The position numbers and the translations under genes were made by a program. The notes beneath the pieces are model-generated. The model saw nothing but the letters and a program-made list of their open reading frames with translations, was not told the DNA's origin and did no database searches. 64,000 nt of DNA from Negaprion brevirostris (Eukaryota): positions 91,994,641-92,058,640 of the forward strand of contig JARDVH010000025.1 of NCBI GenBank assembly GCA_030324005.1. Reading direction: 5' to 3'. The stretch's first letter is position 1. The number at the start of each line of letters is the position of its first letter. Positions 6,331 to 11,623 of the stretch are shown here, piece by piece.

Positions 6331-8329
6331 ATTTACCAGCTTTTGGAGTATGCAGAGGAGTTTAATTGGCCTCCTGCCTGATTGGGTTTCATAATACATT
6401 TAAAGAACAATTATTAGTTCAGTGAATAGGTTTCAATTTATGGAGAATTAGATCCGCTAACGGAAGCCTAGGGCTGAAAATTCATACCCTTTACCCAAGA
6501 TCGCAGTACGCTGGATGGGTTGCCTTCCCTTGGGGATTGTGGAGGACCTTGTGAGATATACAACTTCTAGCTATTCAATAAGATGCAGTGACATAGAAGA
6601 CGGTGGGATGCAAATTTCTAGGACTGAGATCTGCTGGGTGCAAATTAAATAGTCAGTATACAGGGTCAAATCAGGCCTGCAGCCTTCCAACAGGTGACGT
6701 GGCTTGGATTGCGAAAAGCCTTTTCAGGAAGTAATGATTCTTTTAGCCTCTTTATAAAGGAGACTGATGGGCAGGTAGAAGTATTCTTCATGGAAACACA
6801 ACACTTTCTAAACTCACAATCCAAAAACAGACAGATATCTACCAAGATTCTCAGCCTGCTAGACAAGCACAAGATGCTCCCCTGGAGATGTAAGGACTTG
6901 CCATTGTCATGTAAATGCAAGGATTACCCTCTGATTCTGGGAATAACAAGGTCAGAAACATAAGGTCCTGGGTGGGCATGCTCCAATGCATATGATACCA
7001 ACAATATAGACGTTTGCCCCCCACCACCTTTTCCTTCACTGAACAAATTAAAAAGGTTGGTTGAAAACCTGAACTGTAATACCTCGTACCATCCCAAAAA
7101 TGGAAACTGACCACCTATTCCTAGTTACATATGGCGGAGGAGGGGATGGTAACACAGAAACGCTTAGATCGGAGGCTATGTTACAGTAGGCAATAACTGT
7201 AATACATCAATGTTGTCATGCCTCAGGAAAAGGAGGTCTTTGGTTTTCCCACAGGAAATCAGCCGATCAGGAACAGCAACCATCATGCAACTGTAACAAA
7301 GATTCTCAAACAATTTCCAAACCTCATTTATTGCTTTGTTGTGAAGGACACAGTTTTGCATACTTAATTCAACAGAGAATCCACCACAGAAAGATTTGAG
7401 AGGCTTAATTGATCTGTAAATTCATGTGACTTATAACTAACATTATGCTATTCAAAAATTAATCAAATCTAAAGGTTCTAATTCAAATCAGCCCTGACAG
7501 AAACATTGCTAGGCAAGGAAGTGTTCACTGATGCTTTGTTTTGTCTGTATTTCTGCAATCTCTAAGACACTGGAGTGTACAACAAAAGCCTTCTCGTTAT
7601 TCACAAAGTTCATTAAACTGTGACAAAGAAGAAGGTTACACTGATTAGATATTTGAAACGTAATACTTTATTCTTTTCAATGTAATCAATTTAATTCATC
7701 TCCCGAGAGTGTAATTTTTTTTTTGCAAACGCAATTATATTAAACAGTTAGCCTGCTGATTAGGCAAAAACAGAAATAATTAATCAGAAAATTACAAAAA
7801 AGAATTAATCACCACCATACATAGTGAAAACTTATTCTCGTCTGTTATACAATAATGAAAATTCTACTAACAAATATATTAGCCAAGGTGCATCAGAAGT
7901 ACACAAACTGCTTGATTTTTTAAAAAAATATTAATATATTTAAAATAATCATATTGAAAGCTGCAACTTCATCTAAATGCACATCGATGGCTTTACAGGA
8001 TGATTGCCCACCAATGCTGAAAATGTCTCTTCAAGATGTTACTTTGCTTTTCGTTCACAGACTTCTTTATAGAATGTTTAATCCTACAAATAAACAAAGC
8101 AAGAACTATTACGGGAATGTAGTTCTGTACCATTAGAAGCCATAATTGTGCCTCCACACAGGGCCAGGAAGAGAAACCATGGGCCCTAGCGCTTCTCCTG
8201 TTTCCAGACCCCTTTCCACTTGTTGAATATTATTAATTTGACAGGAAACTATCCTATTGACGATTTATAATGTTGTGCAGATGATTACACTGTCTCATTA
8301 ATATGTCCTATACATTGCAATATACATAA

Positions 8330-8460
8330 AGCAATACAACATGGAGACAGGCCCAATCGGTCCATTGTGTCCTCCCAGATAGTCCCAATTGCCCGCCTTT
8401 GGCCCATATCGCTCTCATCCTTTCCCATCCAAGTACTTATCCAAATGCTGCCATTGTATC
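8330..8460 (-). mobile_element. CR1 3' tail fragment
   Basis: acatggagacaggcccaatcggtccattgtgtcc..cccaattgcccgcctttggcccatatc is the reverse complement of a CR1 3' UTR. Confidence 0.6.
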
Positions 8461-8479
8461 GTGACAGTAAATTCACAAA

Positions 8480-8570
8480 ATATTGAGATGCTGGAAATAC
8501 TCAGCATATCAGGCAACATCTTTGATGAGGTACAGAGTTAAAGTTTCTTGTTGATGACATTCATCAGAAC
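8480..8570 (-). mobile_element. Short Penelope-associated repeat (family 2) with decayed hammerhead motif
   Basis: gatgctggaaatactcagc..tcaggcaacatc..gttaaagtttc..tcatcagaac. Minus strand reads gtt-CTGATGA..GAAA-ct-tt-aac. Similar to 44270 and 52563. Confidence 0.6.
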
Positions 8571-9034
8571 AGTAAAATGTATACTTTGGAGTAAGATTCA
8601 ACACTTGCAACTCAGATTTAACGAAAGCCATCAGATTTTGTTTATCTGTGCTGCATCAGAACAAAGGATCACTTCCATGCTGCAGCTCAGTGTTTTGTTG
8701 GAGAGTTGTAGAAGGAAAATAGAGAAGGAGCGCAGGAGAGGAGGGAAGGAGAGGGGATGGTCCCATTCATTTGTTTCTGCCTGAGCTCCCTCTTCCCTCC
8801 AATGAAGCAACTCACTCCCTTACCTCTCCCTACTAGACCTGCTATATGGCTGATGGCATTAGAGAGAGCTTCCCCCTCACAGCTCCCCATCTCACAGGGA
8901 CCAGGAACAGTAAGAAGTCTCACAACAACAGGTTAAAGTCCAACAGATTTAATTGGTAGCATGAGCTTTTGGAGTGCTGCCCCTTTGTTAGGTGAGTGGA
9001 GAGTTGGGTTCATGAACAGGTATATATAGACAGA

Positions 9035-9148
9035 AGGCGGAATTTTACCAACATGTCTGCCCAAGTTTCACACGATCCTGCCCAAAGCCAATGGAGAATG
9101 CCATTCTGCAAGCTGAGCCCGCCTCCTGGTAAAGTTAAAACTCCGCCC
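9035..9148. mobile_element. Harbinger-type MITE nested in the Penelope left arm
   Basis: TIRs ggcggaattttac and gttaaaactccgcc. Absent from the mirrored right arm. Confidence 0.75.
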
Positions 9149-9385
9149 ACAGACTCAATTACAAGATAATGGTTAGAATGCGAATCTTAATAGGTAATAA
9201 CCATCTTTGTAGAAACTTGATGTCTGTGTTGATATGCGCGGTCTTTTTGGAGATCCTCACCACTTTGAGCCGACAGTTTGCTGTGTCAGTGGAGCCATGA
9301 TGTGGAGATGCTGGCATTGAAATGGGGTAAGCACAGTAAGGTGTCTCATAACACCAGGTTAAAGTCCAACAGGTTTATCTGATAG

Positions 9386-9420
9386 CATGAGCTTTTGGAG
9401 CGTTGCTCCTTCATCAGGTG
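9386..9420 (-). ncRNA. Minimal type I hammerhead ribozyme motif, G12 mutated
   Basis: Minus strand: cac-CTGATGA-a-ggag-caacg-ctcc-AAAA-gc-TC-atg. Stem II is perfect; GAAA has become AAAA. Confidence 0.65.
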
Positions 9421-9708
9421 AGTGGAGAATNNNNNNNNNNNNNNNNNNNNNNNNNNNNNNNNNNNNNNNNNNNNNNNNNNNNNNNNNNNNNNNNNNNNNN
9501 NNNNNNNNNNNNNNNNCCACATCATGGCTACCACCAACATGCATACTGCCGGCTCAAAGTGGAGAGGATCTCCAAGAAGATCGCGCGTATTGACACAGAC
9601 ATCAAGTTTCTACAAAGATGATTACCTATTAAGACTCACATTCCAACCATTACCTTACAGTTGCATTTGTGCCTAAATATGCCCTCTTTGGAAACCCAAC
9701 TCTCCACT

Positions 9709-9743
9709 CACCTGATGAAGGGGCAGTTCTCCGAAAGCTCCTG
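9709..9743 (+). ncRNA. Minimal type I hammerhead ribozyme motif, core intact
   Basis: cac-CTGATGA(9712-9718)-a-gggg-cagtt-ctcc-GAAA(9733-9736)-gc-TC-ctg. Stem III is the palindrome AGCU. One mismatch in stem I. Confidence 0.7.
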
Positions 9744-9854
9744 CTACCAAATAAACCTCTTGTACTTTAACCTAGTGCGGAGAGACTTCTTACTGTGCCC
9801 ACCCCAGTCCAATGCCGGCATCTCCACACCACGGGACCAGGAAGTTAGTGGATT

Positions 9855-10485
9855 GGCTCCCAGCAGCAGAGGGCCAGGCAGTGACCATCTCTAACAAGAG
9901 GGAATCTAACCATCTCCTCTTGATACTCAATGGCATTAACATTACTAGTGGGGAAGTCAGCAACATCCTGGAGATTACCACTGAACAGAAACTGAACTCG
10001 GCTAGCCACAAATACTGTGGTGACAAGAGCAGGTCAGAGACTGGGAATTCTGCACTAAATACCTTATCTCCTGAATTCCCAAAGCCTGTTCACCACCTAT
10101 AAGGCATTAGTCAGGAGTGTGATGGAATACCCTTCACTTATCTGAAGCTCCAAAAACACTCAAGAGGCTCGACAACATTCAGGACAAAGCAGCCCACTTG
10201 ATTGGCATCCCATCTATCACCTTACACATTCACTCCCTCCACCAGTGACGCACAGTGGTATCAGTGTGTACCATCTACAATATGCACAGCAACAATTCAC
10301 CAATAGTCCTCTGATGGCATCAACCAAAACTGTGATCTTTGACACCTGTAAGACACATGAGAACCCCAGCAAGTCATCTCCAAGCTACACAGCATCCTAT
10401 CTTGGAACTATCTTGCCACTCCTTCACTATCATTGGGTCAAAGTCCTGAGACTCCCTGCCTAACAACACTGTGGGTGCACTTTCA
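9855..10485 (+). mobile_element. CR1-clade LINE fragment, ORF2 3' region
   Basis: ISNKRESNHLLLILNGINIT..VNILEITTEQKLN followed by gtcaggagtgtgatggaatac. Same family as 36262-39340. Confidence 0.8.
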
Positions 10486-10486
10486 C

Positions 10487-10616
10487 AGTGTAGAGATACC
10501 AGTGTTGGACTGGGGTAAACACAGCAAGAAGTCTCACAACACCACGTTAAAGTCCAACCAGTTTATTTGATAGTAATCCCACTAGCTTTCCGCACCATTC
10601 ACACACCTGACGAAGG
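10487..10616. mobile_element. Penelope pseudo-LTR fragment with head-to-head hammerhead halves
   Basis: ggactggggtaaacacagcaagaagtctcacaacaccacgttaaagtccaac. Minus-strand GAAAGCTAGTG at 10580-10590, then plus-strand cacCTGACGAagg at 10604-10616, running into a gap. Confidence 0.7.
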
Positions 10617-10716
10617 NNNNNNNNNNNNNNNNNNNNNNNNNNNNNNNNNNNNNNNNNNNNNNNNNNNNNNNNNNNNNNNNNNNNNNNNNNNNNNNNNNNN
10701 NNNNNNNNNNNNNNNN

Positions 10717-10786
10717 GTTTGGAGGTGGGTTTGGAGGTGGGTTTGGAGGTGGGTTTGAAGGTGGGTTTGAAGGTGGATTTGGAGGG
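10717..10786. repeat. 12-bp tandem repeat (GTTTGGAGGTGG)n
   Basis: About 5.5 visible units next to an N gap. Confidence 0.9.
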
Positions 10787-10803
10787 TGAGAATATTTGTT
10801 CTT

Positions 10804-11623
10804 GTGGTGAGAGGCGTGTGACCCCTATGAACAACTTCTACGAACTGTCCTCTGACATTCTAGCGTCGCTGTATGAATTCAGTTGTTGCCCAGAGAGGAT
10901 AAAAGCAACAGCTGTAAAATAAAGAGTTAATAGTTATAGTAGTGAGATAATGATGTGTATCATGATGGAACAGTGGCCACCATGTGCAAGAGAAGGGAAA
11001 ATGAAATTGTCTCAGCAAGAGAGATGCCTAGAATGTACTACAGTGTAAATAAAGGAGTTTTTGAAGAAATTTCTATCCATTTGTGGACATGGGTGTCTCC
11101 AGCTGGCCAGCATTTATTGCTCATCCCTCATTGCACTTGAAATTGAGTGACTTACTAGGCCATTTTGGAGTGTTGTTGACAGTCAACTACATTGCTATGG
11201 CTCTGGAGTCATATGTAGGCCAGACCAAGTAAGGACAGCAGATTTTCTTTCCTAAGGATACTAGTGAACCAGGTGGGTTTTCCTGGCAATGGCTTCATGG
11301 TCGTCAGTAGATTCTTAATTTGAATTAAATAAAAGCATTATCTGGAATTACTGAATGCAAATTTCTGCCTTGGCAGGATTCGAATCCAGGACCCAGAACA
11401 TTAGCTGTGTTTCTGGATTATTAGTTTAATGATAATACCAATAGGCCATCGCCTCGTCTAAAAATAAATATACTGGGGTTAGACCCAAGTTACTCGTAAC
11501 TAGTGGGAAACCTTCCCAATCCCAGAACAACTCTCAAATTATCTGAGGAGAGATTCAAATAATATCTAAAGTGGAAACCAAACCATAAACCATGGTGGCA
11601 GCAGCAGTGACACCAATCTAACA
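10804..11623 (+). mobile_element. LTR-like repeat copy A, interrupted by a SINE
   Basis: Blocks at 10920-11057 and 11495-11590 align with 13170-13280 and 13845-13985. Contains an aataaa signal; TG..CA ends are plausible. Confidence 0.4.
11075..11455 (-). mobile_element. tRNA-derived SINE, Deu-domain/SacSINE1-like
   Basis: Collinear with 568-928. B-box ggattcgaatcc. Confidence 0.7.

Follow-up and report, generated by a model that had tools for sequence, protein, structure and literature searches.

The window, the whole stretch of 64,000 nucleotides of Negaprion brevirostris DNA that was analyzed, carries two inverted arms bracketed by a perfect 11-nt target-site duplication (left copy 8897-8907, right copy 9833-9843; family D13, copies 100% identical), as an earlier note on this DNA had proposed. 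Positions within the inserted element are given relative to the start codon of its ORF (ATG = +1). The left arm, on the minus strand, is made up of an outer piece at 8908-9201 that consists of 3′ UTR and pseudo-LTR (about -220 to -36) and forms the tail-less short end, an ORF head (+1 to +98) at 9202-9298 that has a 1-nt deletion as well as a stop in frame and is joined to the 3′ UTR at 9202/9201, and an inner pseudo-LTR at 9299-9430 (about -135 to -1) that is cut by an assembly gap of 86 N (9431-9516), where the inversion centre is hidden. The right arm, on the plus strand, opens at 9517-9620 with the final 7 nt of a pseudo-LTR followed by the ORF head (+1 to +98, ATG at 9524), also with a 1-nt deletion and with its join at 9620/9621, and continues in an outer piece of 3′ UTR and pseudo-LTR at 9621-9832 (about -217 to +2, or -219 to +2 when the locus is read as a whole) that ends in a tail of about 37 nt (9796-9832, plus strand) found at the right end only. 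The order across the locus is duplication; minus strand -135 to +98, join, -220 to -36; gap; plus strand -7 to +98, join, -219 to +2; duplication. One end is accordingly short (-36) and the other tailed (+2), and the left arm holds two direct pseudo-LTR copies while the right arm supplies the inverted one.

The arms had been described as inverted copies making up a palindrome, which holds in so far as they are 80-89% complementary in blocks; the left arm, placed earlier as ending at 9300, runs to the gap at 9430, and "palindromic" is a loose term for arms that differ at 35 of 171 UTR columns (20%). In both arms the head of the Penelope-like ORF is fused to 3′ UTR at ORF base +98, so that the junction is shared as claimed except for 3 extra letters (GTT) in the left-arm join. 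The fused coding piece, put at about 35 codons in the earlier note, is 97 nt or about 33 codons long, and owing to the 1-nt deletion in each arm neither copy is in frame from its ATG.

Hammerhead motifs are present at all three places noticed earlier, with a full core at only one of them. The minimal motif at 9709-9743 (plus strand) is the one of three with intact CUGAnGA and GAAA boxes, and in it the stem I pair at the cut is broken and stem II has one mismatch; the motif at 8960-8994 (minus strand) is a remnant with both core boxes mutated, and that at 9386-9420 (minus strand) a remnant in which GAAA has become AAAA and the stem I pair at the cut is lost. The form is minimal, with a visible 3-bp stem I and a palindromic stem III stub in place of a canonical type I fold with loop 1-loop 2 contacts. 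In fold prediction the motif at 9709-9743 does not fold as a hammerhead monomer, and folding the motifs alone was uninformative (z 0.65, -1.79 and -0.21). An Rfam search of 8000-11000 returned no hammerhead at E<=10 and only five chance-level matches to other models. In element coordinates, -126 is the first position of the hammerhead core, with the predicted cut at -98/-97 and the ORF stop at -339. The intact 35-nt minimal pattern has 1420 exact matches genome-wide; these belong to two or three pseudo-LTR subfamilies at the least, distinguished by stem II and by a 7-nt block after the cut. According to the available text of PMC4209133, minimal hammerheads of metazoan Penelope-like elements (PLEs) occur on opposite strands, 100-700 bp apart. 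The motifs described here resemble these minimal type I hammerheads in their core boxes, the extra base before stem II, the palindromic stem III stub and the occurrence of pairs on opposite strands, and differ from them in that two of the three lack core bases and that they are known from sequence alone.

The left arm is interrupted at 9035-9148 by a later insertion that is absent from the earlier note, a 114-bp MITE. It is a shortened member of a 127-bp family characterized by terminal inverted repeats and by duplications of 3 bp (AGA/ACA at this site). A search of the genome for this MITE gave 1107 candidates, the best 40 of which were scored; among 14 relatives (L178-L191) the length between the terminal repeats is 127 bp in 13 and the 3-bp flanking repeats are exact in six, the family duplications lying in a C-WNW-G context. 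A 5-bp duplication was dropped as a candidate, the family having 3-bp repeats. We take the MITE to be of PIF/Harbinger type, which its terminal inverted repeats, short non-coding body and 3-bp duplication fit. Once it is removed, the two same-strand hammerhead motifs of the left arm are about 310 nt apart. Further along the window, a separate pseudo-LTR copy of the same PLE family (-105 to -3) lies at 10488-10616 on the minus strand and is cut by a gap at 10617-10716, after which about six copies of a 12-nt tandem unit follow at 10717-10785.

The parent is a very common Neptune-type PLE of about 2.97 kb. Its single ORF has a reverse transcriptase followed, at the C terminus, by a GIY-YIG endonuclease with CCHH, the feature that defines endonuclease-bearing PLEs, and a CX4CxxC linker is seen upstream of the endonuclease. 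A CX2-5CxxC linker at this position marks Neptune and is absent in Penelope and Poseidon, according to the available text of PMC8557442, and by these linker criteria the translated parent is placed, as a predicted protein, in the Neptune-type clade. A Pfam search with eight parent fragments gave nothing above the cut-off, with just a weak RVT_1 match on one fragment. The pseudo-LTRs come from partial tandems, as at L071, where the 3′ end is repeated about 2.94 kb upstream. Many of the 30 loci that were chosen by an intact hammerhead (L147-L176) begin at -129 to -136, just before the hammerhead, which is possibly the transcription start of a predicted pseudo-LTR promoter.

The divergence of the arms bears on both age and assembly. 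The ORF heads of the two arms differ at 11 of 96 positions, and the right arm lies at a median distance of 19.5% from 60 unrelated copies of its subfamily, the same as the distance between the arms; derived letters common to both arms number 3 in 171 columns, which is within background. Since a mis-assembled duplicate would be near identical, the 20% difference between the arms indicates that the structure is old and not a mis-assembly, and the concern, raised at the outset, that the inverted arm might be an assembly artefact is further allayed by the duplication that brackets the arms. Public contigs were compared using a bridging rule of 31 letters. By this rule only one contig was counted as a bridge, an X5 contig (record 18, with an organism label other than that of X1) that runs across the left-arm MITE and shows 11 differences, so that the structure is likely older than that split; an X1 flank contig shows zero differences from the window. 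Flank contigs of X2, X5 and X6 fall below the rule, extending 26-29 nt from the left flank into the arm, and one X5 contig reaches 29 nt into the right arm. Among the public contigs, no listed piece spans the 9431-9516 gap and none covers 9431-9508. No RNA data set is among those listed as carrying the sequence.

We then compared the locus with other copies of the family, which were fetched via ORF-head or hammerhead anchors, with boundaries set by BLAST against one reference and duplicates removed. The fetched loci contain 39 outward-facing inverted clusters, and in 35 of the 39 an end of the -38 type is paired with an end of the +1 type. A duplication scoring at least 7 flanks 21 of the 39 clusters, in comparison to 1 of 156 shifted controls, and the combination of an inverted 5′-truncated copy, a 30-40-nt tail at one end and a target duplication is present here and in 35 of the 39. 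Two direct pseudo-LTRs, one inverted pseudo-LTR and a one-end tail are thus the family norm and the published Penelope pattern. In the available text of PMC3846280, two direct pseudo-LTRs stand next to an inverted one, a 31-bp tail is found at one end and the duplications measure 9-10 bp; a deleted derivative is also described, internally deleted derivatives flanked by inverted pseudo-LTRs being reported there for Adineta vaga PLEs, and PMC8557442 gives the same Penelope layout as a general scheme. The Pen2a_Av/Pen2_Av elements of A. vaga (PMC3846280; scheme in PMC8557442) have in common with the locus the direct pseudo-LTR pair plus an inverted one, the 30-40-nt one-end tail and a duplication of 9-13 bp. 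Unlike what the available account of Pen2a_Av/Pen2_Av describes (PMC3846280), the locus skips nearly the whole ORF and has the same private join in both arms; no published account of a private join common to both arms was found in titles or abstract openings, Repbase and Dfam lying outside the scope of that survey. The Penelope origin, the minimal hammerheads in the pseudo-LTR and the inverted mode of insertion proposed in the earlier note are all borne out, and the layout is the one published for PLEs. The locus belongs among the complex PLE insertions, a class already known, and is a dead, ordinary copy of a high-copy family.

The earlier note had gone further, to a retrozyme-like family, and had itself set uniqueness of the junction against this claim; largely unique is what the junction proved to be. 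The exact join pattern has two matches genome-wide, both at this locus, while the undeleted ORF head has 154. With 2 mismatches allowed, six matches were obtained, two here, two true joins elsewhere (L003 and L146, both carrying another subfamily's UTR) and two false; L143, with no PLE sequence, and L145, with ordinary UTR, were dropped as joins. A subfamily-matched pattern had 0 matches in the genome, and a wider pattern found six loci with six different joins. A DNA search centred on the join (best 40 of 513 candidates) found both sides spanned only by this locus, L015, L003, L008 and L146, with no ORF-head join in the 15 other mapped candidates. The fetched loci together yielded 48 refined joins whose ORF ends lie at +50 to +160; these are spread over 44 loci, nearly all of them differ from one another, and a single pair, the right arm here and L003, was identical between loci. 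Exact searches miss diverged copies; a handful of sister joins is possible, and a family is excluded. Splicing was rejected as the origin of the join, the ORF side having no GT and the breakpoints being variable. Same-strand pairs of the core 13-mer spaced 298-328 nt apart occur at six places in the genome; one of these is an ORF-head unit, namely a dimer whose join differs from the present one, and tandem arrays are absent from all six.

By the definitions in the available texts of PMC7229834 and bioRxiv 10.64898/2026.07.22.740005, the locus is not a non-LTR retrozyme. The latter asks for at least two consecutive tandem units that each carry a complete hammerhead; here both left-arm motifs lack core bases, and the single fixed unit of a retrozyme family is likewise missing. 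The same preprint derives retrozymes from PLE pseudo-LTRs and reports them from one cartilaginous fish, with a mean consensus of 363 bp. Animal non-LTR retrozymes, as far as those two sources describe them, are like the locus in their hammerhead spacing of about 300 nt, their origin from a PLE pseudo-LTR and their non-coding nature, and unlike it in that the locus has no tandem array, no fixed-unit family and no complete ribozyme in consecutive units, is inverted overall and is known from DNA alone. In genomes of this kind a 300-nt hammerhead-to-hammerhead spacing can arise accidentally at insertion and is insufficient alone for a retrozyme call. The ribozyme-to-ribozyme RNA of about 320 nt that had been suggested as the mobilized unit did not hold up, since the copies end at about -38, +1 and +100 to +150 and not at the predicted cut at -98, and two of the three hammerheads lack core bases. 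At two other loci, L048 (1521-1530) and L083 (1060-1068), the ORF head is fused precisely at the predicted hammerhead cut (-97), which may be a trace left by cleavage in vivo; at L048 the opposite arm also begins at -97, and microhomology is present at the join. Joins at the cut were rejected as a recurring class, the exact genome-wide pattern for further such joins having 0 matches.

Among 99 anchored ORF heads (from 100 matches listed, of 154), 82 are uncut by N or by the end of the locus; 40 of these 82 end within +100 to +150, and 27 of those 40 join UTR. Joins with 0-1 nt of microhomology number 36 of 48, where chance would give 39, and those with at least 4 nt number 4 of 48 (1.0 expected). 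Six loci have a join in both arms: the two joins are identical in L013, L034, L080 and L174, lie 3 nt apart here, and are mixed in L154, where the UTR site is the same in both arms and the ORF-side sites differ. The centre is without a gap in L034, L080 and L174. In a test restricted to loci with no start in the common cluster around -133 (-143 to -122), 8 of 23 loci have opposite arms whose starts lie no more than 5 nt apart, where permutation gives a mean of 0.58 (p=1e-5), and 7 of 22 do so when this locus is set aside; in 4 further inverted clusters from the join-centred search a shared start was found in 0. At the 21 loci with one join, the other arm stops at the 3′ partner site of the join in nine, five of which belong to the common cluster, falls short of it in seven and extends further upstream in five (L004, L008, L037, L069 and L128). 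Several single loci are of note in their own right. Pieces of one insertion begin three times at -419/-417 in L165 (1449-2493) and twice at -187 in L051 (1281-1789), private positions far from the common start. In L084 (923-1039) the ORF head ends at +117 directly against a duplication-like repeat, and in L096 (975-1113) and L135 (990-1097) the ORF heads reach the duplication via just 5-9 nt of pseudo-LTR-like sequence, so that all three look as if the enzyme had jumped almost at once.

The locus is almost certainly an old, decayed head-to-head insertion of a Neptune-type PLE. The occurrence of opposite arms with a private 5′ start and join suggests that a single RNA served two reverse transcriptases, which made template jumps while copying it, and for this locus we lean towards a join that was likely made during the insertion itself, by two reverse transcriptases copying the same short RNA. 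Two reverse transcriptases would be primed on opposite strands of the cut target, one starting at about -38 and the other at about +1 on one RNA; each would run to the RNA 5′ end near -219, jump from there to the RNA 3′ end at +98, either of the same RNA or of a 5′ fragment of the same transcript, and continue copying; and the two cDNAs would meet head to head in what is now the gap. The hammerheads would be passengers of the pseudo-LTR in this scheme. Of the original proposal, a short RNA copied more than once survives, with its ends set by breakage or trimming and not by a ribozyme. A template jump is supported by join microhomology near chance, as in template jumping; in the available text of PMC8857657, non-LTR enzymes jump between templates with little pairing, while LINE-1 chimeras come from RNA pre-ligation. 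The arms that stop at the 3′ partner site of the join (9/21) fit a linear RNA end. The five of 21 loci with a longer other arm, at which either the jump was not at the RNA end or two RNAs were used, speak against one RNA whose 5′ end was fixed; on the same side stand the 4 further inverted clusters with no shared start and the 4 of 48 joins that have at least 4 nt of microhomology. A ligated RNA would predict just as well that four loci have the same join in both arms.

Taken by itself, this locus is also compatible with a template transcribed from a source copy in which the deletion already existed. Such a low-copy source, mobilized in trans and providing the template for both arms, is the strongest of the competing explanations, though we consider it unlikely. 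One linear RNA running from -135 to +98, join, -219 to +2 contains the sequence of both arms, and a complete unit of that shape, with its start at -135, exists at L041. The start of the left arm is close to the -133 cluster, and the outer two hammerheads have a stem II letter that is absent from the inner one; this difference at one polymorphic site is what separate pseudo-LTR copies might show. Elements of this kind are also known for R2, where, according to the available text of PMC3414825, short internally deleted elements (SIDEs) join a 5′ ribozyme region to the 3′ end of the parent, as here. R2 SIDEs, however, propagate as families, and for the locus no daughter copies were found: the genome yielded no sister copy, the sole identical join (L003) having another subfamily's UTR and the subfamily-matched pattern having no match, and the derived letters that the arms have in common remain within background. 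Deleted sources would moreover be required by the dozen, each with about one daughter, and would leave unexplained why, in nine of 21 loci, an arm ends right at the join site.

Somewhat less probable again is a one-off circular RNA of about 310 nt, with its ends at -219 and +98 ligated, around which both enzymes rolled. Circular PLE intermediates have been proposed (PMC4209133, in its available text), both arms exceed one unit, the joins show little microhomology, and the joins of L013, L034, L080 and L174 are the same in both arms. A circle, however, gives the opposite arm no reason to stop at the join, as it does in those nine loci, nor does it account for L154, which jumps from one start to two different sites; its ends are not the ribozyme cut; and the two joins at the present locus are 3 nt apart, which a later 3-nt duplication could produce.

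We regard as improbable that the first cDNA folded back and primed its own copying into DNA to give the second arm, or that this arm is an artefact of assembly around the gap. Self-priming has been proposed for head-to-head Penelope copies (PMC3846280, in its available text), L136 has a short reverse copy of the hammerhead core at its join (near 1345-1356), that is, a small fold-back, and the right arm here could contain all of the left if the gap were longer than 86 nt. In the ungapped L034 and L080, however, each arm has sequence missing from the other, so that neither contains the other and copying of one arm from the other is excluded there; the artefact is opposed by the divergence of the arms, the bracketing duplication and the X5 contig across the MITE. 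A fixed ribozyme-to-ribozyme RNA that is a parasite of the autonomous element is very improbable. In its favour are the roughly 310-nt same-strand spacing in the left arm, the pseudo-LTR ancestry and cartilaginous-fish occurrence of retrozymes (bioRxiv 10.64898/2026.07.22.740005, in its available text) and the cut-site joins of L048 and L083; against it are an essentially private join, the absence of an array among the core pairs, arms of which none ends at -98 here, the core bases missing from both left-arm motifs, a minimal fold and the empty genome-wide search for cut-site joins.

Returning to two reverse transcriptases on one short RNA, the closest biochemical system is PAc, a Poseidon element of Anolis carolinensis (PMC11167929). 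In the available text of that work, the purified PLE protein, modelled as a dimer, acts on both strands, cutting as well as extending them, and begins synthesis at two internal sites delimiting the tail; the protein needs the ORF head for activity, and hammerhead cleavage is dispensable for insertion. PAc resembles the locus in that two internal start sites downstream of the hammerhead bound the tail and that both strands are cut and extended; it differs in belonging to another clade and in that its ORF begins inside the hammerhead, and the available account reports neither a jump to the RNA 3′ end nor a pairing of the two start sites. As a tentative generalization, which we hold with less confidence than the reading of this single locus, PLE insertion may proceed by a protein dimer that, working from both cut strands at the same time, copies one short RNA extending over pseudo-LTR and ORF head, with one subunit for each internal start site and with a jump, or the crossing of a ligated circle, from a private 5′ end to the 3′ end. 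For the origin of PLE inverted ends and one-sided tails, PMC8557442 and PMC3846280 offer differing proposals in their available texts. If the generalization is true, one model would account for the inverted pseudo-LTR, the one-sided tail and the partial tandems, and old genomic copies would record the ends of individual template RNAs. The value of the locus is that it is one of several copies whose arms have private breakpoints in common, and these private breakpoints make the origin of the inverted ends a concrete in vitro question for a system such as that described in the available text of PMC11167929.
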